Part shown: piece by piece, positions 1,222-21,186 of the stretch
Layout of the letters: every line of letters begins with the position of its first letter
Position numbering within the stretch: the stretch's first letter is position 1
Assembly (NCBI GenBank): GCA_030643545.1
Contig: DAOWLE010000025.1
Location: forward strand, 1-26,909
Direction of reading: 5' to 3'
Length of the DNA: 26,909 nt
Origin: a bacterium
Lineage (GTDB): Bacteria; Patescibacteriota; Minisyncoccia; JAHIHE01; DAOWLE01
Program-made: the position numbers and the translations under genes
The notes under the pieces: model-generated
Database searches by the model: none
Seen by the model: the letters and a program-made list of their open reading frames with translations, nothing else
What the model was told of the DNA's origin: nothing

Positions 1222-1362
1222 AAAATTTAAAGTTTAAAAATCAAAAATCAAAATGACAGTGGAAAATTCAAAATTGACTAATGTTAAAATGGTTTTTAAT
1301 TTGTTTCATTTTGACATTTTGATTTGTCATTTTACACTTTGATTTTTAAATTTTACATTTTC
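1222..1362. repeat. imperfect palindromic intergenic element, copy A (tcaaaatgacag...ttgactaatgttaaaatgg...tttgtcattttaca)
   Basis: Shares the tgtaaaatgaca / tgtcatttt(g/a) inverted cores and the ttgactaatgttaaaatggttttt block with the copies at 17496-17612, 17940-18140 and 21082-21186. Lies immediately upstream of the secY start. Confidence 0.7.
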
Positions 1363-1471
1363 TATGTGGGCCCCGTTCCAAATTTCGCAAAATAGTATAA
1401 TACATCAGAAAAACCCTAAGCATTTTAAAGTATTTGAATTGCAATAGACAGTGTTGTGAAATTTGGAACGG

Positions 1472-1556
1472 GGTGGGCGGTGAGGGACTCGAACCCCCGT
1501 AGTCCAGAGGACGCCTGATTTACAGTCAGGAGCAATTGCCACTATGCGAACCGCCC
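1472..1556 (-). tRNA. tRNA-Tyr (anticodon GTA), class II with long variable arm
   Basis: Reverse complement reads GGGCGGT-TC-GCA-TAGTGGCAAT-TGC-T-CCTGA-CTGTAAA-TCAGG-(long variable arm)-GGGGG-TTCGAGT-CCCTC-ACCGCCC-A-CC. The acceptor, D, anticodon and T stems all pair. The anticodon loop CU-GUA-AA gives Tyr. The 3-bp D stem and long variable arm are typical of bacterial tRNA-Tyr. The 3' CCA is not fully encoded. Confidence 0.85.
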
Positions 1557-1570
1557 GAATATTAGATTTA

Positions 1571-1644
1571 TGAGCCCACGGGAGGACTCGAACCACCGAC
1601 CGACGGTTTACAAAACCGTTGCTCTACCACTGAGCTACGTGGGC
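1571..1644 (-). tRNA. tRNA-Thr (anticodon TGT)
   Basis: Reverse complement reads GCCCACG-TA-GCTC-AGTGGTA-GAGC-A-ACGGT-TTTGTAA-ACCGT-CGGTC-GGTGG-TTCGAGT-CCTCC-CGTGGGC-T. This is a canonical cloverleaf with anticodon loop UU-UGU-AA, with one U·U mismatch in the T stem. CCA is not encoded. Confidence 0.8.
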
Positions 1645-2237
1645 TTATCTTTCCCTATTTCTTCCAACTTTTTTTTCGCCTCTTTATCTTTAGAATTAAT
1701 TTTAAGAATTTGCTTAAAAGATTCTTTGGCGTCTTTATAATTTTTCTGCGCTAAATATAATAAGCCCAAAGACCGATATGTTCTAACATCGCGGGGATTT
1801 TTAATAATCGTTTCAATATATTTTTTTTCCTCAACAACAAACTGCTCTTTTTTTTCTTCTTTTTTCGGTTCCAGCCGTTTTTTTTCTGCTTGCTGAATTT
1901 CGAGTTGATTTTTTGAAAAGCGCGCTTTTGCTTTAAATTCTTTTTCTTTGTTTTTTAAAATTTGAATCCATTGCTCAAACCAGCTGTCAGATTTTAAGGC
2001 AATCGCTCTTAATTTTTTCAAAATCTTTTCTAATTTTATAACAACTGACCGAATAATATTATGATAATTAATTTTTTTAATTTTTTGAGAAATTTTTCCC
2101 GGTTTTTCAGCATGCTGAGCTAAGAACTGAATATCTTCTGCCGGCATATTTTTGAATTTAGAAATCTTGCGAAGAATAATTACCAAAATTCCTCCGATTG
2201 ATAAAATAATAATTAATTTAGCTATAAATTCGTACAT
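1635..2237 (-). CDS. membrane-anchored coiled-coil/TPR-repeat protein (hypothetical)
   Basis: 200-aa ORF with an N-terminal TM helix, a Lys/Glu-rich coiled-coil stretch and one TPR-like motif (LGLLYLAQKNYKDAKESFKQILKIN). Its stop overlaps the 5' end of tRNA-Thr by a few nt. Confidence 0.6.
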   Translation of the reverse strand: MYEFIAKLIIILSIGGILVIILRKISKFKNMPAEDIQFLAQHAEKPGKISQKIKKINYHNIIRSVVIKLEKILKKLRAIALKSDSWFEQWIQILKNKEKEFKAKARFSKNQLEIQQAEKKRLEPKKEEKKEQFVVEEKKYIETIIKNPRDVRTYRSLGLLYLAQKNYKDAKESFKQILKINSKDKEAKKKLEEIGKDKPT

Positions 2238-2241
2238 AAAT

Positions 2242-3048: not shown

Positions 3049-3498
3049 TTAAATTTCATATCTCACGAACTCTCTTATTTGAATATTTTCCCCTAATTTT
3101 GAAATTTTTTCGTTAATCAAATCTTTTATTGTTTGGTCAGAATTTTTAATATAAGATTGTTCAAGTAATTCTTTTTTATCTTTTGGATTCATCGCCGCAA
3201 TATGCATTGTTAAATTATGGGCTAATTCTTTAAAAGCGTCGTTGCGAGCGACAAAATCCGTCTCGCAAACCAATTCCAAAAGGACGCCGACTTTTCCAGA
3301 ATTATGAATATACGATTCAATAATGCCAGCTTTGGTTTCTCTGTCCGCTTTTTTTTCTATTGACTGCGAGGTTTTTTGTTTAAGAAATTGAAGCGATTTT
3401 TCAAAATCTCCATCAGAAGAATCCAGTGCTTTTTTGCATTCAACAACAGAAGCACCAGTTTCCTCGCGTAATTTTTTAATTTGATCAGAATTTATCAT
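3049..3498 (-). CDS. tsf: elongation factor Ts, short form
   Basis: 149 aa. The N-terminal UBA-like motif LREETGASVVECKKAL matches LRERTGAGMMDCKKAL of E. coli EF-Ts. Core motifs GVLLELVCETDFVARNDAF and HIAAMNP are conserved. The protein is unusually short but has parallels in small-genome lineages. Confidence 0.85.
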   Translation of the reverse strand: MINSDQIKKLREETGASVVECKKALDSSDGDFEKSLQFLKQKTSQSIEKKADRETKAGIIESYIHNSGKVGVLLELVCETDFVARNDAFKELAHNLTMHIAAMNPKDKKELLEQSYIKNSDQTIKDLINEKISKLGENIQIREFVRYEI

Positions 3499-4557: not shown

Positions 4558-4953
4558 CTAAATCGTTTTCAATAATTCATCCATCTTTTTCACAAAAATT
4601 TCTGCTTTTTCAACAGCGTCTTGCGCGTCTTTTTTATTTATTTTAACTTCTTCTCTGTAATCAGCGTCTGTTCTTGCTTCTTGAACTACTGAAAGCATTT
4701 TTGAATAATTTTTATCAACTATTCCAGTTTTTACAAAATATTTCCTCCATAACAAGCCAATTCCTTGATGAGTTTTTGGCTCTTCTTTTTTAAAAATCAA
4801 AACCGCTTTTGCCGCATAAAACATAGCGTAATAAGCCCTTGAAACAGCGTCGCGATATTTTCCGGCTTTAAATAAAATTTGGGCAGATTCTAATTTATCT
4901 TTTGCCAATTTAATTCTCAATTTAGCAAATTCTTTTTTCTTTTTTGGTTCCAT
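4558..4953 (-). CDS. hepT: HEPN domain protein (putative toxin of HEPN/MNT pair)
   Basis: 131-aa all-helical ORF. Its start overlaps the end of the upstream nucleotidyltransferase gene by 37 nt. Family assignment rests on size, the YYAMFYAAKA helix and this genetic coupling. Confidence 0.6.
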   Translation of the reverse strand: MEPKKKKEFAKLRIKLAKDKLESAQILFKAGKYRDAVSRAYYAMFYAAKAVLIFKKEEPKTHQGIGLLWRKYFVKTGIVDKNYSKMLSVVQEARTDADYREEVKINKKDAQDAVEKAEIFVKKMDELLKTI

Positions 4954-5270
4954 AATTCTATTGCGTCTTTTTTAACATTTTCTAAAAAAGGAGTCCATTT
5001 ATTAAATTCTTTCTTTGGCAAAATCCGTGGAGAAATTTCCACCTCGTATTCAAGCATCGGATCAGTAGCCATTTCAATCATTTTTTTCCATTTTTCTCGG
5101 TTCGCTTTCTTGTTTGTAATTAATAAAATATCAAGGTCTGAATATTTATGATAATTTCCTCTTGCTTTAGAGCCAAAAAGCATCATCCTTTCTATAAGAG
5201 TCGGATAATTTTTTCTCAAATTATTTTTATAATCAGTTAAGGCTTTTTTTTCTTTGATATTAAGAGACAT
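4917..5270 (-). CDS. mntA: minimal nucleotidyltransferase (MNT, putative antitoxin)
   Basis: 117 aa with the GSKARGNYHKYSDLDILLI motif (GS...DxD, the pol-beta-like nucleotidyltransferase signature). Located upstream of and overlapping the HEPN gene. Confidence 0.75.
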   Translation of the reverse strand: MSLNIKEKKALTDYKNNLRKNYPTLIERMMLFGSKARGNYHKYSDLDILLITNKKANREKWKKMIEMATDPMLEYEVEISPRILPKKEFNKWTPFLENVKKDAIELWNQKRKKNLLN

Positions 5271-5290
5271 AGTAAAAATGATTTATGAAT

Positions 5291-6013
5291 TTATTGCTTA
5301 ATTTTATTTTTTGCTTCAATAATCGTATCCGAAACAACATCCGTCATTAATTTTAAAGCGCTGATTGCGTCATCGTTGGACGGAATTGGATAATCCGCTT
5401 TTGTCGGATCAGCGTCCGTGTCAGATAAAGCGATTATTGAAACGCCGGTTTTTTTCGCTTCGGAAACAGCTAATTTATCTTTGTTGATATCAATCACAAA
5501 AATTGCTTCAGGAATTTTTTTAAGAAATAAAATTCCTTCTAATTTGCCCCTCAATTTTTTATATTTCTTATCAAAATCCAATCGTTCTTTCTTGGTGTAT
5601 TTTTTAAACTCCTCAGATTTTCTTTTTTCTTCCATTTCTTCCAGAAATTTTATCTGTTTTAATATTACTTTAAAATTAGTAAAAGTGCCGCCAAGCCAGC
5701 GTTCAACAACATACGGCATTCCGCATTTTTCCGCCGCTTGTTTAACAATATCTTTGGCTTGTTTTTTTGTGCTGACAAATAAAATAATTCCGTTTTCTTT
5801 AATTATTTTTTTAACAAATTCCAAGGCCTCTTTTAATTTCTCTTGAGTTTGTTCAAGATCAATGATGTGAATGCTATTATGGGTAGTATAAATATAAGGA
5901 GCCATTTTTGGATTCCATCTTGATTTTTGATGGCCAAAATGAACGCCTGCTTTCAACATATCAGACATTGATATTTCTTTAGTTTTATTTTCAATTTTCT
6001 TTTCTTCTGACAT
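5291..6013 (-). CDS. rpsB: 30S ribosomal protein S2
   Basis: 240 aa with MLKAGVHFGHQKSRWNPKMAPYIY, the conserved S2 N-terminus, and a Lys-rich C-terminal tail. Sits upstream of tsf on the same strand, as in the canonical rpsB-tsf operon. Confidence 0.9.
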   Translation of the reverse strand: MSEEKKIENKTKEISMSDMLKAGVHFGHQKSRWNPKMAPYIYTTHNSIHIIDLEQTQEKLKEALEFVKKIIKENGIILFVSTKKQAKDIVKQAAEKCGMPYVVERWLGGTFTNFKVILKQIKFLEEMEEKRKSEEFKKYTKKERLDFDKKYKKLRGKLEGILFLKKIPEAIFVIDINKDKLAVSEAKKTGVSIIALSDTDADPTKADYPIPSNDDAISALKLMTDVVSDTIIEAKNKIKQ

Positions 6014-6120: not shown

Positions 6121-7035
6121 TCACAGCCATTTTTTATTTTTAAAATAAACTATCATAAAAATAAAAGTAATAATCATTATCAGAATCGCCCACCAGAAAT
6201 CGCAGAAACTTTTTATAAAAGGCATACTATGCATTAAATTCATTCCGAAAATACTGGCAATTAAAGTCAAGGGCAGCATAATCACCGAAAAAATCGTCAG
6301 AACTTTTAAGGTTTCATTAAATTTGTAATAAAACAGCGATTCGTTTGTTTTTTCAATCGCTTCAATCATTTCCTTGTGATTTTCCAAAGTATTCCAAACG
6401 CGGATATTTGATCCGATTACTTCCTGCGAATATATTTTTAAATCCACCTGACAGAATTTAGAAATAATTTTATCAAGAATTTCCAGAACCATTCTTTGCG
6501 GCTTGATTGTCTTGCGAAAATCAATTATATCTTTTTTAACAATGGAAATTTCGCTGATCATCTCTCGTTCGTTTCCCTGAAAAACCTCGTGTTCTATTTG
6601 ATCAATATTTTCGGCAATGTGGTCCAACATTGGTAAACGGGAGTCAATCATTTTGTCCAAAATTTGAAAAAGGAGAAAACCTGTTCCTTTTTCCAAATAC
6701 CGCTCTCTTAACTGATCATGAATATTACAATCGTCAAAAAATTTCCTCAATTGGGGAAGTTTTCCTGAATGGCTGGTGATAATCGTATCTTTAGTTAAAA
6801 GAATATCTAATTCAGTTGAAAAAGTTTCACGGGTTTCTTTTTCAAAAACCGGAAAATGCAAAACGATAAAAAGATAATCAGGATATTCGTCAACTTTCGG
6901 TCGCTTTAACGGCGGAAGATATTCCTTCAAAACAACCGGGGAAAAATTAAAATTTTTCCGCAAATATTCAATATCCAAATCCGTCGGCTTATTAATATCA
7001 ATCCATTTAACTTGTTTAGTTTTAATTGTTTTCAT
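6121..7035 (-). CDS. corA: CorA-family magnesium/cobalt transporter
   Basis: 304 aa. The C-terminal two TM helices carry the signature GMN motif (IFGMNLMHSMPF) and are followed by a basic tail. This is CorA architecture. Confidence 0.85.
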   Translation of the reverse strand: MKTIKTKQVKWIDINKPTDLDIEYLRKNFNFSPVVLKEYLPPLKRPKVDEYPDYLFIVLHFPVFEKETRETFSTELDILLTKDTIITSHSGKLPQLRKFFDDCNIHDQLRERYLEKGTGFLLFQILDKMIDSRLPMLDHIAENIDQIEHEVFQGNEREMISEISIVKKDIIDFRKTIKPQRMVLEILDKIISKFCQVDLKIYSQEVIGSNIRVWNTLENHKEMIEAIEKTNESLFYYKFNETLKVLTIFSVIMLPLTLIASIFGMNLMHSMPFIKSFCDFWWAILIMIITFIFMIVYFKNKKWL

Positions 7036-7041
7036 AAAACT

Positions 7042-7071
7042 GATTTACGATTTAAGATTTACGATTTAAGA
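7042..7071. repeat. gatttaYgatttaaga tandem repeat immediately upstream of the corA start
   Basis: gatttacgatttaagatttacgatttaaga lies 6 nt upstream of the corA ATG. Related copies occur at 11401-11439, 11823-11845 and 22273-22290. Confidence 0.7.
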
Positions 7072-7122
7072 ATAATTTATAACGCAATGTTTCTATTTAA
7101 ATTATACAGTAAAATTTAACCC

Positions 7123-7151
7123 TTGACAAATTTGAATTTATGTAGTAAGAT
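7123..7151 (+). promoter_or_regulatory. sigma70-like promoter candidate (TTGACA-17nt-TAAGAT) for the plus-strand SPFH operon
   Basis: TTGACA at 7123-7128 and TAAGAT at 7146-7151 with a 17-nt spacer, in the divergent intergenic region between corA and the SPFH gene. AGGAGG sequences follow at about 7210 and 7265. Confidence 0.4.
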
Positions 7152-7269
7152 AAAGTGTTGTGATAAGAACTATCATAACCTTGATTTTTACTTTAAATCA
7201 GGAAAAAAAGGAGGATGAAAAGAAAAATGGCACATTCCAAAAAGAATATTTTAGGTGGAAAAATAGGAG

Positions 7270-8757
7270 GTGAAAAAAGGAAAAATGGCAATAGATAAAA
7301 CTTTGGTAATTCTAATAATTTTAGTCATTTCGGTTATCGGAATCGCTACTTGGATTTTGGGATTGCTTGGTTTTGTAATAGCAATAATCGGGATTGGAGC
7401 TGGAATTTTAATCTGGTGGACGCAAAATAAAGAAGGAGTAACAGAAATAGAAAAAGTGACAAGTAAAAGGGATAAAAAAGCACCAATAAAAATACCGCCA
7501 GAAAAATTATTGTCTAACAAAGAACGATGGTGCCGAATTATTTATTTTGCAACGATGATATCGATTATTCCAATAATAACAGTGCTTATTCTAAAAACGA
7601 TCGCTGAATGGATTTTTCGACTTATGGCAACAGCTTCGGGAACAGAAATTCCAGACGGATTCAGTTTTGGCGGCGCTATTCTCGCAGTATGGATAATCTT
7701 GTGGATAGTTATTGCAGCAATAGAAATCAAAATAACAGTTGAGAAAGCAACGGGCATCGTTTTAGTTGAAACTTCAACAGTAGCAATTATTGAAATGATC
7801 GGAGGATACAGTTTTACAGCAAAATACAAAGCCGCTGGAAAGATAAAATTAATTGACAGAATATTTTGTTTCTATTACCCTTTTGAGAAATGCAGAATAA
7901 TATTGCCTGAAGCAAGATTATCGCCGGGAGAAAAGCCCTCAAAGAGATGTCTGCTTTCAATAAAAGAAGAAGTGCTTGACATGAAAGAACAAAAAGTTAC
8001 CACAAAGGACCAAGTGACATTACCAATAGATGCTTATATTACTGGACTTATATTTGATAGTCAAAAAGCGCTTTATGCTATTGATGACTTTTATGTAGCG
8101 ATAGAAAAACTGGCTACTTCTGCCTTAAGAGCAAAATCGGGAGATATGATATTAGACGACATGATTTCAACTGAAGGAAGAGAGTATATTGAAAAAGCAA
8201 TTGCGGAAACATTACAAGGAAGTACTGATAGATGGGGATATACCGTAACGGATACAAGAATAGAATTTGTTCATATACCGAAAAAAGTGCAAGAAGCAAT
8301 GGATAAAGTAGCCATCGCCGAAAGAGAAAAAAGAGCGCTAATAACAAAAACTGAAGGAGAAAAACAAAAGACAATACTATTAGCAGAAGGGGGGAAAAGG
8401 GAAAAAGAGCTATTAGCAGAAGGAGAACGCGCTGAAATTATGAGAATCCGTGAGGGACTTGCCGCTACTGGGCTTGAAAAAAAAGGAGTTCAAATAGATG
8501 TCAGTAGAGTTGGTCCGAACTATGTAATAGGTTATAAGTGGACAGATGAAACTATGCCTAAAGTAGCTGATGGAAAAGCAACAAAACTTGTTATTCCCGT
8601 AGAGACAACCAACTTTGCTAGTATTCTAAGTCAAGCGGCAGAATTTATCAGAGATTCTACTAATACTAAAGAATCTGTTGAAAAAGTAAAAGTGGAAGGC
8701 GAAGAAACGGAAGAAAACAAAGGAGAAGAAAAGAAAAAAGAAAAGGAGGAAGAGTAA
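7270..8757 (+). CDS. SPFH/band-7 (stomatin/prohibitin-like) membrane protein with Glu/Lys-rich C-terminal tail
   Basis: N-terminal TM helices are followed by a band-7 core (DQVTLPIDAYITGLIFDSQKALYAIDDFYVAIEKLATSALRAKSGDMILDDMI...) and a long charged coiled-coil tail. The track start is the GTG at 7270, which is embedded in an AGGAGGTG Shine-Dalgarno. The ATG at 7285 is the more likely true start. Confidence 0.75.
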   Translation: MKKGKMAIDKTLVILIILVISVIGIATWILGLLGFVIAIIGIGAGILIWWTQNKEGVTEIEKVTSKRDKKAPIKIPPEKLLSNKERWCRIIYFATMISIIPIITVLILKTIAEWIFRLMATASGTEIPDGFSFGGAILAVWIILWIVIAAIEIKITVEKATGIVLVETSTVAIIEMIGGYSFTAKYKAAGKIKLIDRIFCFYYPFEKCRIILPEARLSPGEKPSKRCLLSIKEEVLDMKEQKVTTKDQVTLPIDAYITGLIFDSQKALYAIDDFYVAIEKLATSALRAKSGDMILDDMISTEGREYIEKAIAETLQGSTDRWGYTVTDTRIEFVHIPKKVQEAMDKVAIAEREKRALITKTEGEKQKTILLAEGGKREKELLAEGERAEIMRIREGLAATGLEKKGVQIDVSRVGPNYVIGYKWTDETMPKVADGKATKLVIPVETTNFASILSQAAEFIRDSTNTKESVEKVKVEGEETEENKGEEKKKEKEEE

Positions 8758-9696: not shown

Positions 9697-9825
9697 CGAA
9701 AATAAACCACCTAAAAATTCAACAAAGTTTAGCAGGAAATTGGTTGATCAACAAATCAATACCGCCTGCTATTTTTTTTATTTGGAAAACACAAATCCCC
9801 CTAACCCCCTTTAAAAAGGGGGAAC

Positions 9826-9880
9826 AGATTCCGAAACAAGTTCGGAATGACAGAAGAAAATTCGGAATGACAAATTAAAC
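9826..9880. repeat. palindromic GGAATGACAGAAGAA-type element, intergenic copy
   Basis: gattccgaaacaagttcggaatgacagaagaaaattcggaatgaca has palindromic arms attccgaa/ttcggaat and a duplicated ggaatgaca(gaagaa) unit. A near-identical architecture lies at 13635-13740 inside pilD. Confidence 0.7.
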
Positions 9881-9888
9881 CAAAAACA

Positions 9889-9931: not shown

Positions 9932-9952
9932 TTTTTTAAATATTTTATTTTA

Positions 9953-10396: not shown

Positions 10397-10517
10397 TTTA
10401 TTCACCTCCAATCGCGTAATTTATTCCCGATTTTGTCGGGACTATAAATTACAGCGTCCCGCCCTTTTGGCTTAAACCAAAAGAGCGGGGCAACATTTTT
10501 TAATTTAGAAAATAAAA

Positions 10518-11847: not shown

Positions 11848-13083
11848 CTATTGAACTCCCAAAATATCTTTTAACTCCGTAATAATTGACCAAGATAAAA
11901 TAACAACTCCCAGTCCCACAACAGCGTAAAGAATTATATTTTTCGCTTTTTTAATTCTTTCCTCGTCGCCGGCAGAAGTAATATACATTAATCCGCCGAT
12001 AATTAAAAATAAAATTGCCAAAGAAACCACAATTCCCAAAATCCAATTGATAATTCCCATAATCAGCGCCTCAAAACTATCAGTGCTTAAAGGATTATTA
12101 AACCTAACCGCTCCGCCACTACCACCAGTATTGCTTCCACCCATACCACCTCCATTATTAACCGTTCCTCCGCCGCCCTCGTTACAATCAGAACCAGAAA
12201 CACAACGAATTTTTCCTTTGGATTTTCCATTACATGTTCCTTCGCAACTACTTGGTCCGCATATTTCAGCTTCTTGATTATCACATTCATCATCAGGATT
12301 ACAACCAATATTTATCCAATAACAAGGATTTGGAGTAGTTGTTGAAATAGGATTACATTGCCCTATACAACAAACTCTACTACCAGAACATCCTGATACG
12401 TCTAATTTTTCTTGCGAACATGTATTTTTATTTAAATCACAACAACTTCCTCCTGCGTCAGAACAAGTTTGAGTTTTTGGAACACAACTTTCTGGCTGAC
12501 AACAAGTACCGCTGGAACATTCTCTCGGACCTTCAAATACAACTTTTGAACAATTATTTGTTCTCAAATCACAACATATTTGACCACTTACAGATTCGCA
12601 CTTACAATATTTTTCCTTACAACAAAAACCGCTGGAACATTCTCTCGGACCACTTGCTACAAAACCGCTACAGTCTTTCTCATCACAACATACTTGACCG
12701 CTTACAGATTCGCAAGCAGTCGCCGGAGGAGTTGAAGACATTTTGCATTTTCCATTCACGCAACCGTTCGGACAATCATCCACTTTAATAAAACTACAAT
12801 CACAAGTCATCCCCCCCCATCCTTTTTTACAACCAAATTGAACTGATTTTTGATTATTTTCAACGCAAAAAGCATAATCGTAATTGTTTTCGTCGTCGCA
12901 ATCATCGCCCCAAATGCCTCCTGCGCACAAATCGTTAGCTGTCCTCCCATTATAAGTAATATTATTATTATCACAACGATAATCTTTAGCAAAAATTTCT
13001 CCCCCCACTCCCAAAATTCCGAAACAGCTCGCCATTAAAATTAAAGTAAATAAAAAGTTTTTGTTTTGAAATAAATTTTTCAT
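11848..13083 (-). CDS. secreted Cys-rich protein with duplicated Cys modules, Gly-rich segment and TrbC/VirB2-like C-terminal double-TM domain (P3)
   Basis: 411 aa. A signal peptide is followed by an N-terminal domain near-identical to P2. Nucleotide blocks around 12780-13020 and 11100-11340 are almost identical. Internal repeated modules are CESVSGQ(V/I)CCD...GPRECSSG(F/T)CC. The run GGGGTVNNGGGMGGSNTGGSGG is Gly-rich. The C-terminus carries GGLMYITSAGDEERIKKAKNIILYAVVGLGVVILSWSII. Confidence 0.65.
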   Translation of the reverse strand: MKNLFQNKNFLFTLILMASCFGILGVGGEIFAKDYRCDNNNITYNGRTANDLCAGGIWGDDCDDENNYDYAFCVENNQKSVQFGCKKGWGGMTCDCSFIKVDDCPNGCVNGKCKMSSTPPATACESVSGQVCCDEKDCSGFVASGPRECSSGFCCKEKYCKCESVSGQICCDLRTNNCSKVVFEGPRECSSGTCCQPESCVPKTQTCSDAGGSCCDLNKNTCSQEKLDVSGCSGSRVCCIGQCNPISTTTPNPCYWINIGCNPDDECDNQEAEICGPSSCEGTCNGKSKGKIRCVSGSDCNEGGGGTVNNGGGMGGSNTGGSGGAVRFNNPLSTDSFEALIMGIINWILGIVVSLAILFLIIGGLMYITSAGDEERIKKAKNIILYAVVGLGVVILSWSIITELKDILGVQ

Positions 13084-13123: not shown

Positions 13124-14026
13124 TTAAAAAATCAAACTAAAATAAATATCTTTTATAATTTCTCCCCAGAGCATCATTATAATCGTTGCCGCGACTAAGA
13201 AGGGTCCAAAAGGAATCTGGCTTTTGATAGATTTTATTTTTAAACCGATGAGAATTAAACCGATTGCCGCGCCCAAAATAAAAGCAAGGAATAGAGCAAA
13301 AAGAATATTTGGCCAACCGAGAATAAGTCCCATTAAAAAAGCCAATTTAACATCGCCAAATCCCATCCATTGACCTTTTGATATTAAAATTATTAGAAAG
13401 AAAAATCCAGCGGCGATGATAGCAGAGAAAATAGTATTTAGTATATCGTATATTGTATATTGTATAAAAATACCAGATACTAAATACCAGATACTAAATA
13501 CCAAAATAGCTGGAAAAATTATTTTGTCTGGAATAATGTAATGTTTTAAATCGTATACAAAAATTACTATTAGAGAACAAAGAATGAAAAGCAAAGAACA
13601 AAAAGCAATGAACAATGAACAGAAATTTAAAAGATTGTCATTCCCAACTTGATTGGGAATCCAGGCAGATAAGAAATGATTTGAATACTGGATTCCCGCC
13701 TGCGCGGGAATGACAGAAGAAGCGGGAATGACAGAAGAAAAAAAACCTAAAAAATTAAAAAATAAAACAAACAATATTCCTGTTCCTATTTCCACTAATG
13801 GATACTGAATTGAAATTGGTTTTCCGCAGTATCGGCATTTGCCAAAAGTGGAAATAAAACTTAAAATCGGAATCAAATCAAACCATTTCAAATTTTTTTT
13901 ACAATGCGGACAGCGCGAGCGAGAGAAAAAAAATTCTTCTTTTGTTTTCAAACGGCAGATAACAACATTTAAAAAACTGCCGACAATAAGCCCGAAGATA
14001 AAAATAAAGAAAGAAATAACAAACAT
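13124..14026 (-). CDS. pilD: prepilin peptidase (A24 family) carrying an in-frame repeat-derived insertion
   Basis: 300 aa. The N-terminal Zn-binding tetracysteine motif is CPHCKK...CRYCGK. The LNVVICRL and YPLVE motifs are present. The catalytic region VYDLKHYIIPD is followed by the downstream multi-TM A24 domain (GFGDVKL). About 45 extra residues (SSVIPASSVIPAQAGIQ...) lie between TM2 and the first catalytic Asp. These are encoded by the palindromic repeat at 13635-13740. Confidence 0.8.
   Translation of the reverse strand: MFVISFFIFIFGLIVGSFLNVVICRLKTKEEFFFSRSRCPHCKKNLKWFDLIPILSFISTFGKCRYCGKPISIQYPLVEIGTGILFVLFFNFLGFFSSVIPASSVIPAQAGIQYSNHFLSAWIPNQVGNDNLLNFCSLFIAFCSLLFILCSLIVIFVYDLKHYIIPDKIIFPAILVFSIWYLVSGIFIQYTIYDILNTIFSAIIAAGFFFLIILISKGQWMGFGDVKLAFLMGLILGWPNILFALFLAFILGAAIGLILIGLKIKSIKSQIPFGPFLVAATIIMMLWGEIIKDIYFSLIF
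13635..13740. repeat. palindromic GGAATGACAGAAGAA-type element inserted in-frame inside pilD
   Basis: ttgtcattcccaacttgattgggaatccagg...ctggattcccgcctgcgcgggaatgacagaagaagcgggaatgacagaagaa. Palindromic arms are attccca/tgggaat and ttcccgc/gcgggaa, with a duplicated gggaatgacagaagaa unit. The architecture matches the intergenic copy at 9826-9880. On the coding strand it translates as FFFSSVIPASSVIPAQAGIQ. Confidence 0.7.
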
Positions 14027-15079: not shown

Positions 15080-15107
15080 TTATTTCACCTCCCCTCGTTG
15101 AAAAATT

Positions 15108-15204
15108 AAAATCCAAAACAAAAAACAAAAAAATAAATTAAAAGTTAAAAGTTTTTGGTTTTTTGAATTTATTTTTGGCTTTTTTGTTTTTTGTTTTGGA
15201 TTTT
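15108..15204. repeat. perfect 26-bp A/T-rich inverted repeat with 46-nt spacer between the pilC stop and the pilin start
   Basis: aaaatccaaaacaaaaaacaaaaaaa at 15108-15133 is the exact reverse complement of tttttttgttttttgttttggatttt at 15180-15204. The repeat abuts the pilC stop codon at 15205. Confidence 0.8.
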
Positions 15205-16410
15205 CTACATTCCTCCCGCAATACCGTAAATCGGTAGAAGAATCGCCGAAACCATAACTCCCACTCCTATTCCCATCATAACAATTAAAACCGGTTCAAT
15301 CAATGTGGATAAATTATCAACAACATTATTTACTTCTCTTACGTAAAATCGCGCGATATTATCTAAGATTGAATCCAATTTTCCCGAGCGTTCACCGATA
15401 TTGATCATCTGAACAACTATCAGCGGAATTTCCGGACTCTCTCCTAAAACTTTGGCTATAGAGGTTCCGGACTTTACTTTTTCCGCTGTTTTAAAAATTA
15501 AATCTTTAAAAACTTCATTGCCGATAACCGATCCGGTGATTTGCAAAGAGCGGACAATCGGAACCCCGCCTTTGATTAAAGTGCTTAAATTTTCCGAAAA
15601 ACGGACTAAAGCAATTTTTCTAAAAAGTTCTCCCATTACCGGTAGTTTTAGTTTCATTTTATCCCAATTCATTTTTCCTTCCGGAGTATCAACATACCGT
15701 TTAGTTCCAATTCCCACTGTTATTCCAAAAACAATTAGAATCCATCCATAATATCTAAGAAAATGACTTGAAGCAATTAACATCTTAGTTGTGATTGGCA
15801 ATTCTTGTCCTGACTCTTCTATAATAGCGGTTAACTGAGGAATAACATAAACCATAACAATTATTCCAACGGCAAAAAACGCAAGCAAAATAAAAGCAGG
15901 GTAATACATTGCCCCTTTAATTTTATTTTCTAAATCATATTGTTTCTCTACGTGCTCAGCCAGATAAAGCAAAGATTCCTGAAGATTTCCGGAAACTTCT
16001 CCGGCTTTAATTAAATTTACATAAAATTCAGAAAATACTTTAGGATGTTTTGATAGAGAGTAAGAAAGCGATCGCCCTCCTTCTATATCATTGGCTATCT
16101 CAAAAATTTTTTCTCTAAAAAACGCATTGCTTGTCTGTTTATGCAATGTTTTCAGCGCTTCAAGCAAGGTAATTTTCGCTTCAATCAAAGTAGCCAATTG
16201 CCTTGAAAAAATCACCAAGTCCTTTGCCGGAACTTTTTGGAGAAACTTAATATTACGGAACAAAGCCGAAACTTCCACTATTGAAACAATAGAAATAACA
16301 ACTAATTTATGTGATTGAAGCGTTTCTATCGCCGCGGCTTCGTTTGAAGCTTCAACTGTGCCGCTTTGCATTTCGCCTTTTTCATTTTTTGCCTGATATT
16401 TAAATTTCAT
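15205..16410 (-). CDS. pilC: type IV pilus assembly platform protein PilC (GspF family)
   Basis: 401-aa polytopic membrane protein with two T2SSF-like cytoplasmic domains (…FSRQLATLIEAKITLLEAL…; …LSTLIKGGVPIVRSLQI…) and C-terminal GIGVGVMVSAILLPIYGIAGGM. It overlaps pilT by 4 nt. Confidence 0.85.
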   Translation of the reverse strand: MKFKYQAKNEKGEMQSGTVEASNEAAAIETLQSHKLVVISIVSIVEVSALFRNIKFLQKVPAKDLVIFSRQLATLIEAKITLLEALKTLHKQTSNAFFREKIFEIANDIEGGRSLSYSLSKHPKVFSEFYVNLIKAGEVSGNLQESLLYLAEHVEKQYDLENKIKGAMYYPAFILLAFFAVGIIVMVYVIPQLTAIIEESGQELPITTKMLIASSHFLRYYGWILIVFGITVGIGTKRYVDTPEGKMNWDKMKLKLPVMGELFRKIALVRFSENLSTLIKGGVPIVRSLQITGSVIGNEVFKDLIFKTAEKVKSGTSIAKVLGESPEIPLIVVQMINIGERSGKLDSILDNIARFYVREVNNVVDNLSTLIEPVLIVMMGIGVGVMVSAILLPIYGIAGGM

Positions 16411-17489
16411 TGTTTATTTTTCAAAAGCATTTTTAAATCCTTAGGATTAAGTGAGTAAAGCTCCGCATTTTGGCGAGATATCTCGCCTTTTTCAACAAGA
16501 TTTGCTAAAGATTTATTAAGAGGAAGCATTCCTTCTTCGGAACTTGTTTCAATAACCAAATCCAACTGGTGAGTTTTATTTTCCCTGATTAAATTTCTTA
16601 TTGCCGCGTTAGCAAGCAGAATTTCCGTTGCCGGAATTCTTCCACCGTCAACGCGGGGAACAAGCCGCTGAGAAACAATTCCCTGAAGGCTGCTGGCTAA
16701 TTGCGCTCTAATTTGAGATTGTTGATTAGCCGGAAAACTATCAATAATTCTGTCTATTGTCTGAGCGGCATTATTAGTATGAAGAGTGGCAAAAACCAAA
16801 TGACCTGTCTCCGCGGCAGTCACCGCTGTTGATATTGTTTCCGGATCTCTCATTTCTCCAACCATAATCACATTAGCGTCTTCCCTAAAAACAGATCTCA
16901 AAGCAACATGAAAAGAACGGGAATCGTGATAAATTTCCCTTTGAGAAATAATGCATCTGTCTTGAGTAAAAACATATTCAATCGGATCTTCAATAGTAAT
17001 TATACAATCATTTCGGTTATGATTAATTTCATCTATTAAAGCGGCTAAAGATGTTGATTTTCCATGGCCGGTTGGTCCGACCATCAGAACAAAACCTTGT
17101 TTAAGCTTGGTAAATTTGTGAATAATAGGCGGCAAATTTAATTCTTCAACAGTTCTAATTTCCGAAGGAATTAATCTTAAAGAAGCTCCGACATATCCTT
17201 TTTGGCGGAAAATATTAACTCTAAATCTTGCTCTTTCTTCAAAATTATAAGAAAGGTCAATTTCTTTGTCTTTTAAAAACTGGTCTTTTTGTTTTTCATC
17301 AAGCAGAGCAAAGCATAATTCCTCGGCGTGTCCCGGAGTTAAAATTTCTTTGTTTGTTAAAGGAATTAATTTGCCATCAATTCTTAAAATAGGATATCGC
17401 GCTATTGAAATATGAAGATCTGAAGCGCCTTCTTTTGCTGTCATTTCCAAAAGTTCGTTTAATTCTTTTTTAATTTCTAATGAATCCAT
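16407..17489 (-). CDS. pilT: type IV pilus retraction ATPase PilT
   Basis: 360 aa with a Walker A box GPTGHGKST, the Asp box ITIEDPIEY, Walker B MVGEMRD, the His box HLVFATLHTNNA and the PilT-type AIRNLIRE motif. Confidence 0.9.
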   Translation of the reverse strand: MDSLEIKKELNELLEMTAKEGASDLHISIARYPILRIDGKLIPLTNKEILTPGHAEELCFALLDEKQKDQFLKDKEIDLSYNFEERARFRVNIFRQKGYVGASLRLIPSEIRTVEELNLPPIIHKFTKLKQGFVLMVGPTGHGKSTSLAALIDEINHNRNDCIITIEDPIEYVFTQDRCIISQREIYHDSRSFHVALRSVFREDANVIMVGEMRDPETISTAVTAAETGHLVFATLHTNNAAQTIDRIIDSFPANQQSQIRAQLASSLQGIVSQRLVPRVDGGRIPATEILLANAAIRNLIRENKTHQLDLVIETSSEEGMLPLNKSLANLVEKGEISRQNAELYSLNPKDLKMLLKNKQ

Positions 17490-17495
17490 ATAATA

Positions 17496-17612
17496 AATTT
17501 AAATATTAAATATCAAAATGTAAAATGACAATGTAAAATTAAAAATTAAAAATTAAAAATTTTTCAATTTTGATTTGTTATTTTGATTTTTGATTTTTGC
17601 ATTTTAATTTTT
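17496..17612. repeat. imperfect palindromic intergenic element, copy B
   Basis: aaatatcaaaatgtaaaatgacaatgtaaaatt...aattttgatttgttattttgatttttgattttt. Fills the whole spacer between the pilT start and the stop of the upstream small ORF. Confidence 0.7.
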
Positions 17613-17936
17613 TTAGTACGGCAAAAATGGATTTGGTCTTCCAGTTTGGCCCGTTTTTACCGGCAAATCTCCGTGGCTGCGCAGATCTTTGAACTGCGTA
17701 CTTTCTAAAACTTTTAAATCCAATTCCGTGGAAACCAATCCTTCGCTTGGCAAAGACTCGTTCTTTCCATCTAAATAAGGAAAATTTTCATTGTTTGTTT
17801 TAGAAATTGTTTCAGCTGGTTGATTAGATGTTTTCGGCCCTGAAAAATTCCAAATAAGAACTATTGCCATTATTAAAAGGCAAGTTACTAAAATAATCGC
17901 TAAAATTTTTTGTTTTTTTTCTTCTTGAGAAGCCAT
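17613..17936 (-). CDS. small membrane protein (hypothetical), embedded in pilus operon
   Basis: 107 aa with an N-terminal TM (ILAIILVTCLLIMAIVLIW), then a Pro/Ser/Thr-containing soluble tail. It is flanked on both sides by copies of the palindromic element. No homolog recognised. Confidence 0.5.
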   Translation of the reverse strand: MASQEEKKQKILAIILVTCLLIMAIVLIWNFSGPKTSNQPAETISKTNNENFPYLDGKNESLPSEGLVSTELDLKVLESTQFKDLRSHGDLPVKTGQTGRPNPFLPY

Positions 17937-17939
17937 AAT

Positions 17940-18140
17940 ACAAATTTAAAATTTAAATATCAAAATGTAAAATGACAGTGTAAAATTCAAAATTGACTAA
18001 TGTTAAAATGGTTTTTAAGTTTACCCTGTTAAATAAAATCTTTGATTTTCTTTCACCAAAGGCGAAAGACTTAACAGGGTAAATTCCATTTTAACATTTT
18101 GATTTGTCATTTTGCATTTTGATATTTGCATTTTGATTTT
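17940..18140. repeat. imperfect palindromic intergenic element, copy C, with nested hairpin insertion
   Basis: Same outer cores as copies A, B and D, plus the ttgactaatgttaaaatggttttt block shared exactly with copy A. It contains the nested perfect palindromes tgttaaaatgg/ccattttaaca (18001-18011 with 18086-18096) and tttaccctgttaa/ttaacagggtaaa (18020-18032 with 18071-18083). Confidence 0.7.
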
Positions 18141-18141
18141 T

Positions 18142-19884
18142 CTAGTCTTTCGTCGCTTTAATCACTTCATTGATTGTCGTCGTTCCTTTCAAAACTTTTA
18201 ATACTCCATCTTGAAGCATTGACAGCATTTTCTGCCGCCGCGCTTCTTCTTTAATCGCGCTTTCAGTTAAATTTTCAATAACAACTTTTTCCAAACCAGG
18301 AGTCATCGAAAAAACTTCAAAAATAGCCATTCTGCCTTTCACTCCTTGGTTATCGCAATACTTGCATCCTTTGCCCTGATAAATTTTATAGGGCTCTTTT
18401 ATTGACAAACTGTCCTTTTGTTCTTGAGAAAGTTTATTTACTTCCCGTTCAATTAAATTTTTTACGCCCCTGTCCAGTTCAATTTCCTTGCGGCAGTACT
18501 TGCAAATTCTTCTAACTAATCTTTGAGCAATAATTAAATTAAGGGAAGAAGTAATTAAGAAAGGATCAATTCCCATGTCAATTAATCGCGGAATAACGCC
18601 AACCGCGTCATTGGTATGAAGAGTTGAAAGAACAATATGCCCGGTCAGCGCGGCATGAACAGCCAACTCAGCTGTTTCTTTATCCCTGATTTCCCCGACC
18701 ATAATAATATCCGGATCCTGCCGTAAAATTGACCTTAAACCAGAAGCGAAAGAATAACCTATTTCCGGCTTTACCTGGCTTTGATTTACTCCTTCAATAT
18801 CATATTCAATCGGATCTTCCAAAGTAATAATATTCACTCCTTCTTGATTAAGAATTGATAAAAGAGCGTAAAGAGTTGTTGATTTCCCAGAACCAGTCGG
18901 ACCGGTTATCAAAATCATTCCGTAAGGTTTTTTAATGCTTTCAATGGTGAGCTTATGGGCATTGCCTTCTAATCCTAATTCATGCAAGCTTCTTAAACCA
19001 ATTGATTTATCAAGAATTCTTAAAGCCGCTTTTTCGCCATTTAAAGTCGGTAGAGTAGAAACCCTAAAATCTAATCCTTTTCCGTCAATATCCATATGAA
19101 ATCTTCCATCTTGCGGCTTTCGGCTTTCGTCAATTTTGAGATTAGTAAGAATTTTTATTCGCGATATGACGCCTGAACAAACTTGCTTGGGCAAAGTTAA
19201 ACTTGAATGAAGCACTCCGTCAATCCTAAAACGAACTCTTAAATCAGTTTCTGTCGGTTCAATATGAATATCGCTTGCTCCGCCTTCATAAGCATGCCTT
19301 ATAATAATGTCAACTATTTTGCTTACCGGCGTTTTCTCAACTAATCGTTCAACTTTTTCCACCTTTTCTTTTTTTGAAACTGGTTTTTTGCTTTTTAAAT
19401 CTTTTTTTATTCCTTTCAGCGCTTCGCTGACTTCTAAATCCAAAACTCTGTATTGCCTTAATGTTTCTTCAAAAGAAGAAGATGAAGTGATAAAAATTCT
19501 TGTTTTAAGATTATGCCTTAAAGCAATAAATTTAAGAGCTTCTAATGATCTTATGTCTTTTGGATCAAGCATAGCAATATCTATTTGTTTGCCATGTTTA
19601 AAAAAAGGAACAAAACGATAATGCACAGCGGCCTCTTCAGGAATTTCTTTTAAAACATTGGAGGGAATTTTTTCTCCTCTTAAATCAACATAAGGTATTT
19701 TTAAAAATTCTGCTTTTGTCTGGATATAATCTTCTTCTTCAATAATTTTATTTCTAAAAACAAACTCATCAAGCGTTTGTCCGGCTTCGTTTGCTTTTTG
19801 TTTATATGATTCAATTTTTTGAGATTCAATTAAACCTTTTTCTAAAAGAAGATCAATAATTTGTTTGGACTTTTGAACAACCAT
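18142..19884 (-). CDS. pilB: type IV pilus assembly ATPase PilB (GspE family)
   Basis: 580 aa with an N-terminal GSPII_E_N-like domain. Has Walker A GPTGSGKSTT, the Asp box ITLEDPIEY, Walker B MVGEIRD, the His box HIVLSTLHTNDA and the tetracysteine Zn motif CKYC...CKYC. Confidence 0.9.
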   Translation of the reverse strand: MVVQKSKQIIDLLLEKGLIESQKIESYKQKANEAGQTLDEFVFRNKIIEEEDYIQTKAEFLKIPYVDLRGEKIPSNVLKEIPEEAAVHYRFVPFFKHGKQIDIAMLDPKDIRSLEALKFIALRHNLKTRIFITSSSSFEETLRQYRVLDLEVSEALKGIKKDLKSKKPVSKKEKVEKVERLVEKTPVSKIVDIIIRHAYEGGASDIHIEPTETDLRVRFRIDGVLHSSLTLPKQVCSGVISRIKILTNLKIDESRKPQDGRFHMDIDGKGLDFRVSTLPTLNGEKAALRILDKSIGLRSLHELGLEGNAHKLTIESIKKPYGMILITGPTGSGKSTTLYALLSILNQEGVNIITLEDPIEYDIEGVNQSQVKPEIGYSFASGLRSILRQDPDIIMVGEIRDKETAELAVHAALTGHIVLSTLHTNDAVGVIPRLIDMGIDPFLITSSLNLIIAQRLVRRICKYCRKEIELDRGVKNLIEREVNKLSQEQKDSLSIKEPYKIYQGKGCKYCDNQGVKGRMAIFEVFSMTPGLEKVVIENLTESAIKEEARRQKMLSMLQDGVLKVLKGTTTINEVIKATKD

Positions 19885-19885
19885 T

Positions 19886-20494
19886 TTATTGATAATAGAC
19901 TTTTAACCTAATACTGTAAGAAAAATTATCAGACACTTCTTCCTCTTCAGAGGAACCGGAAGAGCTGGAAAAATTAATGGATGTTATATCCATAATTCTA
20001 ATATTGTTTTCTAAACTTCTAAGATAATTTTTAAAATTTTCATAACTGCCGGTTAAATTTATATCAATAGAGACAGATCTAGTTTGTTCAATAATATTTT
20101 GCTGGTCTGCTGTTTCTAAAGAAGACGCTGCATTATTTTCAGAAGTTGTTTTGTTCTGCGCGCTCTGCTGTATTTTGCTAAAATTTGATGATTCAAATAT
20201 CATTCCATTTTCCGAAGCTAAAGCTTCAAGCTGAACTAAAACATTAGGAATTTCCGCTTTATTCGGCAAAGCGTAAAAAACTTTATTTACCCGGCCTTCT
20301 ATATCTTCATATTGATTAACTAATTTCTCAATATCAAAAACTAATTTCTGTTTTTTTTCAAGAGTATTTTCTTTTGTTTCTATTTTCTGCGCAAGATTTT
20401 TTATTTCACCATAGGTTGGCTGAACAAACCATAATAATGCCGCAATAATGCCAATCATCGCAATGGGCAAAATAAGAATTTCTACAAATTTCAT
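19886..20494 (-). CDS. pilO: type IV pilus biogenesis protein PilO-like
   Basis: 202-aa bitopic protein (N-terminal TM, coiled coil, periplasmic domain). It sits directly downstream of pilN and 1 nt upstream of pilB, in canonical pilMNO order. Confidence 0.65.
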   Translation of the reverse strand: MKFVEILILPIAMIGIIAALLWFVQPTYGEIKNLAQKIETKENTLEKKQKLVFDIEKLVNQYEDIEGRVNKVFYALPNKAEIPNVLVQLEALASENGMIFESSNFSKIQQSAQNKTTSENNAASSLETADQQNIIEQTRSVSIDINLTGSYENFKNYLRSLENNIRIMDITSINFSSSSGSSEEEEVSDNFSYSIRLKVYYQ

Positions 20495-20535
20495 AATATT
20501 TTTGTTAAAAATTTAAAAGTTATATTTCTCTGTCA

Positions 20536-21078
20536 TTATTTTTTATATTCAAACATTTCCTGTTTCAAGAAAAGAGAAAGATCAAAACCGATTCCGCCAT
20601 CAACACCTATGCTCGCTGAAGAAAAATCAACTTTACTAATTTCTTCAGCTTCTCTAAAAGCAACTACTTGTTTAGCTAAACTGCTAAAACTAATTGCTTT
20701 TCCCTTAAGCTGAATTTTTTTGCTGGGAACATCCCCGTCAAAACTTTCAAAGCTTACGGTCGGAACAGTATTTTTTTCAATCAGGTCAAAAACATTTGAA
20801 TAATAAATATGATCATTTAACATTCTTTTAAGATTATTTAAATGTTTTTGAAAACTGATTACTTCAGTATCTAATTCCTGACTAATTTTTTCATTTATCT
20901 GATCAATTTCGTTATCTAAATCAGAAACTTTATTGGACAAAGTTTTTTCGTAGAAAAAAAGTCCAGCGCAAATAATCGCTGTGATAATAATTAAAACAAT
21001 CGGAATAATAACCAATTTTTTTGAAGTTTTTTCTTTTTTTTGCCTAAAACCTTCAGGCACTAAATTAATTGTAGACAC
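20536..21078 (-). CDS. pilN: type IV pilus biogenesis protein PilN-like
   Basis: 180-aa bitopic protein with the conserved N-terminal INL(V/L)P motif (MSTINLVPEGF), then a TM, a coiled coil and a periplasmic domain. It apparently starts with GTG at 21078. Confidence 0.7.
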   Translation of the reverse strand: MSTINLVPEGFRQKKEKTSKKLVIIPIVLIIITAIICAGLFFYEKTLSNKVSDLDNEIDQINEKISQELDTEVISFQKHLNNLKRMLNDHIYYSNVFDLIEKNTVPTVSFESFDGDVPSKKIQLKGKAISFSSLAKQVVAFREAEEISKVDFSSASIGVDGGIGFDLSLFLKQEMFEYKK

Positions 21079-21081
21079 GAT

Positions 21082-21186
21082 AGTAAATTTAAAAATTAAA
21101 TATCAAAATGTAAAATGACAATGTAAAATTTAAAATTTTTTAATTTTGATTTGTCATTTTGATTTTTGATTTTTAATCTTTGATTT
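21082..21186. repeat. imperfect palindromic intergenic element, copy D
   Basis: aaatatcaaaatgtaaaatgacaatgtaaaattt...aattttgatttgtcattttgatttttgattttt. Fills the pilM-pilN spacer. Confidence 0.7.

Follow-up and report, generated by a model that had tools for sequence, protein, structure and literature searches.

The subject of this work is a set of four palindromic elements (copies A to D) in the intergenic spacers of the bacterial contig DAOWLE010000025.1, the entire public sequence of which, 26,909 nt, was analysed and is called here the window. The nearest described entities are the intervening sequences (IVS) of rRNA genes with S23p open reading frames (ORFs): gene, size, inverted ends and heptamers are shared, and the location differs. 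The 23S IVS of Coxiella has terminal inverted repeats and tandem heptamers upstream of its S23p ORF, and it is excised by RNase III (PMC4990558); furthermore, a survey of insertions in the rRNA genes of the Candidate Phyla Radiation (CPR) found 23S_rRNA_IVP ORFs within them (PMC11270868). The rRNA IVS of Coxiella, Leptospira and others resemble the present family in their size of ~430-445 nt, in the stem-forming terminal inverted repeats with a single small PF05635 ORF between them, in the tandem heptamers beside the ORF start, the number of which is variable between strains, and in a patchy distribution that has been ascribed to horizontal transfer (PMC4990558; PMC11270868). On the other hand, the present copies reside in the spacers of protein-coding and tRNA genes and not in rRNA helices 9, 25 or 45, most of them have no ORF, and their arms are longer (arrays of ~50 nt); excision by RNase III is a feature of the IVS which can be extended to the present elements by analogy only.

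Among the bacterial miniature inverted-repeat transposable elements (MITEs) of transcribed spacers, the Correia elements of Neisseria, the enterobacterial ERIC and the pneumococcal RUP/BOX sequences are, like the present ones, imperfect palindromes of 100-200 nt with many dispersed copies inside operons in either orientation, and they also have internal-deletion derivatives, nested insertions and outward promoter-like hexamers. In contrast to these MITEs, the present family has no known transposase-bearing parent insertion sequence (only the PF05635 gene is found in its full-length form) and no defined target-site duplication, its arms are heptamer arrays instead of simple terminal inverted repeats, and it crosses phyla. 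Repetitive extragenic palindromic (REP) and BIME sequences, which are mobilised by RAYT (Y1) transposases, are likewise short palindromic intergenic repeats forming mosaics, and a parallel is offered by a RAYT-like gene flanked by GTAGGGTCWGACCCTAC palindromes near one PF05635 gene (locus L185); however, a REP unit is rich in G+C and measures 20-40 nt, its sequence has nothing in common with the heptamer arms, and no RAYT gene is present in the window. Intergenic heptamer repeats have been described as well: in Beggiatoaceae, Cyanobacteria and Bacteroidetes, TAACTGA repeats immediately precede start codons (PMC4679880), and paired heptanucleotide arrays of Geobacter metallireducens were proposed as IHF/HU sites (PMC2700814). 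Both have in common with the present arrays the tandem 7-nt units a few nt from starts without a Shine-Dalgarno sequence, the length steps of 7 nt, and a suspected horizontal spread by a mechanism that is not known (PMC4679880, PMC2700814), but they run for the most part as direct arrays that preferentially face the start, whereas the present arrays are inverted pairs. In the literature searched no report was found that links these repeats to PF05635, and a full-text search returned no description of PF05635 cassettes, or of gene-less derivatives of them, in protein-coding spacers.

To our knowledge, neither a function nor an origin has so far been known for the protein encoded in the rRNA IVS. 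Here its PF05635 gene is placed in a widespread palindromic element which also colonises operon spacers (rpoB-rpoC, lepB-hisS, the pil operon) and appears to leave gene-less copies behind. Copies A-D belong to the palindromic heptamer-array family whose full-length form encodes only a PF05635 protein, and on balance it is probable that they are non-autonomous, MITE-like, gene-less derivatives of an IVS-type element that are tolerated in transcribed spacers. The outcome is a concrete, testable model for the origin of intervening sequences.

A dispersed family of heptamer-array palindromes

The four palindromes that had been recognised by a first-pass annotation are present, with the ends given in Table 1. 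A repeat search of the window placed all of them in a single family of direct and inverted repeats, and both of their arms can be aligned. In the alignment to the hidden Markov model (HMM) of the arms, each arm consists of ~7 AAAATNN heptamers around the invariant core AAAATGACA, the two arms being inverted; the 19-mer-bearing arm continues ...ATGTAAAATT and the opposite arm reads ...AaTTCAAAATgt. The 19-mer AAAATGACARTGTAAAATT (up to 3 mismatches) occurs 7 times in the window where 0.15 occurrences are expected, and the 9-mer core also 7 times, every one of them within the elements, against 0.65 expected. When an HMM built from the eight arms was used to scan the window to E 10, exactly those 8 arms, i.e. 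the 4 elements, were returned. The strings that had been described as common to all copies hold in part: B, C and D carry the left-arm string aaatatcaaaatgtaaaatgaca(a/g)tgtaaaatt unchanged and A has a diverged form of it (aaaaatcaaaaatcaaaatgacagtggaaaatt), while the right-arm string is exact only in D, since B reads TGTTATTTT for TGTCATTTT, and deviations in the outer heptamers are seen in A and C. The sequence ttgactaatgttaaaatggttttt is indeed common to A and C (1275-1298 and 17994-18017). Copy C possesses in addition an inner stem (CTAATGTTAAAATGG / CCATTTTAACATT) and a nested insert, and the first heptamer of copy D is directly abutted by the pilM stop codon (21187-21189).

Almost all genes of the window are on the minus strand. 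Pfam confirmed pilM, pilO, pilB, pilT, pilC and pilins, and with them the location of three copies within the pilus operon (B between o107 and pilT, C between pilB and o107, D between pilM and the pilN-like gene); the 180-aa "pilN" and the 107-aa ORF (o107) gave no Pfam match, and the former is called pilN-like after its operon position. The elements had been said to fill whole spacers from stop to start codon. This is correct for B, C and D (spacers of 123, 205 and 108 nt, respectively) but not for A, which takes only the secY-proximal 147 nt of a 256-nt spacer bounded by tRNA-Tyr and is separated by 7 nt from the start of secY (1215, minus strand), to which it is upstream. In no case is the site an rRNA helix, as it is in the 23S IVS; all four copies are between protein-coding or tRNA genes.

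Table 1. Coordinates of the elements, arrays and host genes in the window
Feature	Coordinates	Strand	Description
Copy A	1222-1362	+	19-mer arm 1222-1275, loop 1276-1309, other arm 1310-1362; arm HMM 38.2 + 36.4 bits
Copy B	17494-17612	+	o107-pilT spacer; one arm core degraded to TGTTATTTT; arm HMM 33.4 + 25.7 bits
Copy C	17940-18141	+	pilB-o107 spacer; long form; arm HMM 40.7 + 36.3 bits
Copy D	21082-21187	+	pilM-pilN spacer; minimal form; arm HMM 35.5 + 29.0 bits
Nested small palindrome at tip of copy C	18017-18083		G+C-richer, TTTACCCTGTTAA...TTAACAGGGTAAA; -27.9 kcal/mol, z = -7.3
Full-length sister-family element	11394-11847	-	PF05635 gene 11412-11798 (Pfam E = 9e-39); arrays 11799-11847 and 11394-11411
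Gene-less GATTTAC/GATTTAA array	7036-7079	-	directly upstream of corA-like start
Short gene-less GATTTAC-type array	22270-22290		before pilM
Short gene-less GATTTAC-type array	5271-5290		before another gene
Third-type palindrome AAAACAA/AAAATCC	15080-15190		pilC-pilin spacer; type also fills spacers of L124
secY	1-1215	-	runs off the window; Pfam SecY E = 1.6e-102; start codon downstream of copy A
Host genes around B, C and D	16407-22269	-	pilT 16407-17489, o107 17613-17936, pilB 18142-19884, pilO 19886-20494, pilN-like 20536-21078, pilM 21187-22269

Copies A-D are members of a dispersed, multi-copy repeat family that is carried by many Patescibacteria/CPR and related bacteria; the possibility that the element is absent elsewhere, which would have spoken against the initial proposal, is not the case, as relatives were found in many genomes and phyla. 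An exact scan for the 19-mer AAAATGACARTGKAAAATT in one genome per species of the Genome Taxonomy Database (GTDB) returned at least 118 loci; among the matches listed, 91 of 120 had full flanking arms and 29, mostly in coding DNA, were due to chance. The true matches bear Patescibacteria labels (Saccharibacteria, Yanofsky-, Falkow-, Moran-, Portnoy-, Wolfe-, Brenner-, Doudna-, Magasanik-, Kuenen- and Niyogibacteria, Paceibacterota, Minisyncoccales) or belong to metagenome-assembled genomes (MAGs) of Omnitrophota (several, one of them with four matching contigs), Planctomycetota (including a 1.17-Mb contig), Chlamydiae (one) and Pacearchaeota (one), where the taxon of single-contig matches may reflect mis-binning. 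In 0.88 Mb of fetched loci the arm HMM detected 197 arms, which make up 72 paired elements. A 31-mer identical in B, C and D was present in 47 JGI metagenome contigs with 28 distinct flank clusters and a GC content of 0.32-0.49, next to genes whose products start like those of rplK, serS, hisS, ruvA and yebC (named from the N-terminal sequence only). All 10 matches of the 19-mer in IMG/VR were chance matches without arms, and a viral vector was discarded on this ground. A collapse of the assembly is excluded by the identical spacers in the independent assembly L001, and relatives occur in more than 130 other contigs.

The ends of the elements are close to the flanking ORFs (median 5 nt on either side) and the orientation relative to the flanking genes is unbiased: 18 and 16 elements in the two co-directional orientations, 6 between convergent and 5 between divergent genes. 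Copies of one genome are more alike than copies of different genomes (0.846; none of 1000 label permutations reached the observed value), which fits amplification or homogenisation inside the genome. A subfamily was observed in a groundwater population (several contigs of L135-L181, GC 0.45-0.48), in which a UUCG-type G+C hairpin, ATTCCGACTTCGTCGGAAT, replaces the second core, a conserved tail (AGCGAGCGAAGCGAGCGCAT) stands right before the ATG of many different housekeeping genes, and element and downstream gene are co-oriented in most contigs.

The gene-bearing members of the family measure ~445 nt. In three of these full-length relatives (L104, L005, L078) the loop of ~345 nt contains one ORF on the strand of the 19-mer, which starts a few nt from the 19-mer arm, ends beside the other arm and specifies a PF05635 "23S rRNA intervening-sequence protein" (E ~1e-17), the only solved relative of which by sequence is the uncharacterised protein 2RLD. 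A further full-length element (L194) was found at a lepB-hisS junction, and at this syntenic site the full-length element of one lineage corresponds to gene-less copies of 103 and 142 nt in two others. Only the last 28 codons of the PF05635 ORF are left in L069, and L109 has N- and C-terminal fragments of it with an in-frame stop, so that internal-deletion intermediates exist between the 445-nt and the 100-nt forms. Compared with MITEs, the family has terminal inverted repeats and a small size (arms of ~50 nt, total 92-235 nt), many dispersed copies with presence/absence differences between relatives, and a longer parent with the same ends (L104, L005, L078, L194) together with deletion intermediates (L069, L109); the parent has no transposase, the sole ORF between its arms being that of the PF05635 protein. 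Compared with the IVS, inverted termini enclose a PF05635 ORF in the full-length members and the window copies have no ORF. Remnants of this ORF were sought in the loops of A and C, where no local alignment was better than with shuffled sequence, and an 11-nt similarity to LKWLL codons is not claimed.

A database search returned ~2,200 clusters of the element-type PF05635 protein clade. The best 120 of these all start in a near-uniform manner with M-x-N-D-x-(A/V)-K-F-K, a peptide that is encoded by the arm core in the full-length elements which were read (L104, L005, L078, L194); consequently the gene is likely to have the arm at its 5' end in all members of the clade. The association is not limited to the present family: inverted short tandem-repeat arrays directly adjoin the PF05635 gene on both sides at each of the 13 distinct sites examined, including the window's own PF05635 gene (o128) with its inverted GATTTAC/GATTTAT heptamers, and the type of array broadly tracks the protein clade (o128-like proteins with GATTTAC/AAGAATT, the present family with AAAATGACA, a third clade with AAATCCT or TAATTATTC). 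The full-length element of L194 is also among the 13 sites, and so is a PF05635 gene with inverted AAGAATT/GGATTTA arrays that is located between rpoB and rpoC in another Patescibacteria genome (L183, 2954-3395).

In the light of this association it is conceivable, if rather doubtful, that the PF05635 gene with its inverted heptamer arrays constitutes an unrecognised class of autonomous elements without a canonical transposase, of which A-D would be the MITEs and the rRNA IVS a special case. The four-helix-bundle protein, a relative of Avd of diversity-generating retroelements, would then bind the arrays in heptamer register and would drive or protect the element, and gene-less palindromes would continually remodel the operon spacers in CPR, Omnitrophota and Planctomycetota. 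Identical proteins at different sites were sought as a sign that a full-length copy is mobile, but the protein P0286 represents one stable locus in many samples. An element inside an rRNA gene was also considered; the sole examined locus with a 23S gene (L072, Yanofskybacteria) has its element elsewhere, ~4 kb from that gene. The 23S match of this locus (6239-8000) spans 1,116 model positions in 1,762 nt, which corresponds to an insertion of ~650 nt without heptamer arms.

Turnover and folding of the spacer elements

In order to follow the fate of the spacers, the pil operon of the window was compared with those of relatives whose PilB is at least 90% (L123, L191-L193), 79% (L121) or 61% (L124) identical. 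The coding flanks are almost identical between the compared strains and the spacers are different. Between pilM and pilN, the place of copy D, L191 has 35 nt with a T-rich array only, L192 and L193 have 180 nt with a G+C-rich palindrome, and L123 has 210 nt with another heptamer family. The pilO-pilB junction, 1 nt in the window, is filled in relatives by 181-206 nt of nested heptamer palindromes. Instead of copy C, the pilB-o107 spacer contains GATTTAC palindromes of 72-80 nt, one heptamer apart, in L123 and L191, and it has 92 nt in L192 and 186 nt in L193; the place of copy B between o107 and pilT is 164 nt long in L191 and 174 nt in L192 and L193. pilT and pilC overlap in the window and are separated by 45 nt in L191 and by 258 nt in L121. 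Pieces of the T-rich arm of copy D, broken by several G+C-rich mini-hairpins, were recognised in L121, and ~20 nt beside the pilN and o107 starts are conserved although the remaining spacer differs. Turnover at orthologous junctions, unbiased orientation, full-length and intermediate forms and arms without co-variation are all observed in this family.

This turnover bears on the view that the copies are host regulatory modules of the pil operon and secY, giving different levels of expression along the operon and for secY, a view that we regard as unlikely. They would then be selected stem-loops for processing by RNase III or RNase E, for stabilisation or for attenuation, or else a terminator combined with a promoter. 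The filling of stop-to-start spacers between co-directional genes would agree with it, and so would the T-rich array kept in relatives before the pilN and o107 starts and the genes downstream of the copies, which have no visible Shine-Dalgarno sequence. The junctions themselves, however, are not conserved in strains with a near-identical pil operon (35 vs 108 nt at pilM-pilN, 1 vs ~190 nt at pilO-pilB). The gene-proximal arms of B, C and D share a sigma-70-like TTTACA-17-GATATT directed at the downstream gene, but the promoter scan matched only 9 of 12 positions in sequence of 87-90% A+T. Among the terminator-type hairpins searched for (G+C-rich stem with a T run) none lies inside the elements, the stems of which are almost pure A:T, though such hairpins are used elsewhere in the genome, for example after the pilin gene.

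Folding of the four copies in gene sense gave z = -4.7 (A), -1.3 (B), -10.3 (C) and -5.7 (D). The long stem-loops anticipated in the transcript are accordingly predicted for A, C and D, three of four copies folding significantly better than shuffled sequence, which favours regulatory modules, whereas the fold of B is no better than shuffled, which does not. Furthermore, the antisense strand folds better than the mRNA sense in 27 of 36 co-directional cases (mean difference 2.4 kcal/mol, Wilcoxon p = 0.02), in either orientation of the element (13:5 and 13:4), without the window copies (23:9) and in all four window copies, while no strand bias intrinsic to the element was detected (33 vs 29). 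If an mRNA hairpin were under selection, the opposite of such weaker folds in mRNA sense would be expected. The arms of one element are 0.764 identical and those of different elements 0.784, and the two variable heptamer positions change independently in each arm; without co-variation the complementarity derives from the shared consensus and not from compensatory change. A structured RNA would be recognised by compensatory change or by a match to a curated model, and neither was found: the only Rfam hits at gathering score in the window are two tRNAs, and at E up to 1 the nested insert of copy C gave a far-sub-threshold match to the hairpin of a plant microRNA, which was rejected as spurious. 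The hairpins had been suggested to set differential levels of the pil products, a role that is not supported as a selected one, since they are not kept at the same junctions, their arms do not co-vary and the mRNA sense folds worse.

The independent variation of the arms is what separate arrays would show, and it leads to another explanation, in which the heptamers are iterated sites for a protein of benefit to the host and the palindrome is secondary. The binder would be a host protein with affinity for single-stranded or duplex nucleic acid (a cold-shock protein, ribosomal protein S1 or an IHF/HU-type factor) that aids Shine-Dalgarno-independent translation or chromosome organisation. Arrays directly upstream of starts without a Shine-Dalgarno sequence, the 35-nt T-rich array as the only content of the pilM-pilN spacer in L191, and the parallels of the TAACTGA repeats upstream of starts (PMC4679880) and of the Geobacter paired heptanucleotide arrays (PMC2700814) point in this direction. 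Nevertheless we consider it quite improbable: sister strains hold different heptamers at one and the same junction, so that no single sequence-specific factor is served, the pilO-pilB and pilT-pilC junctions of the window have no array at all, and the arrays travel with the PF05635 gene, which argues for a partner encoded by the element and not by the host.

A TGACA/TGTCA-recognising transcription factor had also been offered as a candidate, and an operator of this kind can be discussed together with a DNA-uptake signal for the neighbouring pilus and a guide-RNA array (TIGR/CRISPR-like). In favour of such readings, AAAATGACA and TGTCATTTT form a perfectly inverted core pair, a type IV pilus is encoded at the locus, with one pilin giving a sub-threshold ComP_DUS match (E = 3.8e-4), and TIGR arrays are common in Patescibacteria. 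These readings are hardly credible and are already contradicted. The core-to-core distance ranges from ~13 nt to >400 nt across elements and the neighbours are unrelated housekeeping genes in many phyla, which speaks against the operator; the 9-mer core, unlike uptake signals, is confined to the elements in the window; and neither a Tas (Nop-domain) nor a cas gene is in the window, the units being conserved palindromes without a box C/D dual-spacer layout and not spacer-bearing repeats. Of the three candidate roles between which the first-pass annotation had not chosen, that of a MITE/REP-like selfish element is supported by the dispersal in both orientations, the gene-bearing relatives, the deletion intermediates and the spacer turnover between near-identical strains; the interpretation given by the annotation is thereby partly supported.

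Proposed origin of the gene-less copies

The derivation of A-D from an IVS-type element could proceed as follows. Loss of the gene from the ~445-nt element by internal deletion would give palindromes of 90-200 nt such as A-D, and these may be carried along, whether selfish or neutral, in the very short spacers that compact genomes have. Insertion in either orientation would yield a transcript with an A-rich arm, a loop and a U-rich arm that can fold back. In the predicted folds a distance of 0-6 nt separates the base of the stem from the upstream stop, and one of 7-12 nt separates it from the downstream start; the insert would be looped out with the stop and start codons kept close to each other, and this would explain its tolerance in tightly packed operons. 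By analogy with the rRNA IVS, the stem may be cut by RNase III (PMC4990558). Since the two arms vary independently, each of them seems to be read as an array; recognition is probably arm by arm and not as a duplex, and the reader could be the element's PF05635 protein or a host factor such as a single-strand binding protein. From the weaker folds of the sense strand it would seem that the hairpin, once inserted, is eroded by the host. If the ratios of the pilM, pilN-pilB and pilT-pilC products are affected at all, this would be a by-product, and incidental effects of the elements on the transcript are possible.

Several observations weigh against this derivation. No transposase or other mobility gene was found; the comparison of filled with short junctions gives no clean target-site duplication, the flanks being A/T-rich stop and start contexts; and there is no clean empty site for B or C, where relatives hold other elements. 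The family is present at the lepB-hisS junction of lineages whose proteins are only 50-55% identical, to which long retention or a functional constraint fits as well as repeated insertion, and the near-identity of arms across genomes of very different GC could be the result of strong selection and not of transfer. The T-rich array at the pilN and o107 starts is retained in L121, L191 and L192 despite their differing spacers, and for this reason the element may act in part as a leader or promoter; a host function of this start-proximal array is a possibility. As regards the stem itself, arms without co-variation and weaker sense folds argue against a selected RNA stem.

It is also evident that the few non-coding nucleotides rank among the fastest-changing parts of ultra-small genomes, with wholesale exchange of spacers between near-identical strains. 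Heptamer-array palindromes could also be mistaken for regulatory RNAs. Many contigs bearing homologues are only ~1 kb long, and metagenome assemblies are for this reason probably fragmented by these repeats.

Neighbouring genes, arrays and hairpins

Besides A-D the window contains gene-less arrays and palindromes of other heptamer families (Table 1) and a number of hairpins of different nature. Between tRNA-Tyr and copy A there is a long hairpin (1371-1473, within 1363-1480, minus strand; -37.4 kcal/mol, z = -6.6) with G+C-rich ends CCCCGTTCCAAATTTC...GAAATTTGGAACGGGG, which has no Rfam match and is unrelated in sequence to the heptamer family. The small palindrome nested at the tip of copy C has a counterpart in the sister strain L123 (~4640-4710), with the termini TTTACCCTGTTAA / TTAACAGGGT(A/G)AA and another interior, nested at the tip of an unrelated TTTCTAA-type palindrome; the two cases suggest a second mobile family that targets the tips of palindromes.

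The gene o128 has a weak bAvd match and long repeats on either side. These repeats (10991-11387 and 12669-13065) are the 5' parts, ~400 nt, of the T4SS-pilin-like genes o291 and o411, 82-98% identical. A diversity-generating retroelement was rejected here, because the repeated stretches belong to paralogous genes and the scan of the window ORFs revealed no recognisable reverse transcriptase.

In L185-L190 (~1490-2470) a 237-aa gene with a weak match to Y1 (IS200/RAYT-like) transposases is flanked by GTAGGGTC(T/A)GACCCTAC palindromes and lies 500 nt upstream of a PF05635 gene, without a link to the heptamer arms; this Y1-like gene may be the source of G+C-rich mini-hairpins. In the window, mini-palindromes rich in G+C occupy the spacers 9697-9952 and 10412-10517 (GTCATTCCGAA..TTCGGAAT, CCCCCTTTTTAAAGGGGG, GCCCCGCTC..GGGCGGGAC), and palindromes of the same kinds break up the heptamer arms of related genomes (CCTGCCGGCAGG and GGGGAGG types, L121).

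A further heptamer array, TGTTCTT/TGTTCAT on the plus strand (26803-26857), is situated directly upstream of a 1503-aa LamG/DUF2341 gene. It is 78% complementary to 13575-13625 in the prepilin peptidase gene, a stretch that would encode a hydrophobic linker. Finally, rpsB (5291-6013) and tsf (3049-3498), usually adjacent genes, are separated in the window by a toxin-antitoxin-like nucleotidyltransferase and HEPN gene pair together with a 271-aa gene (4558-5270).

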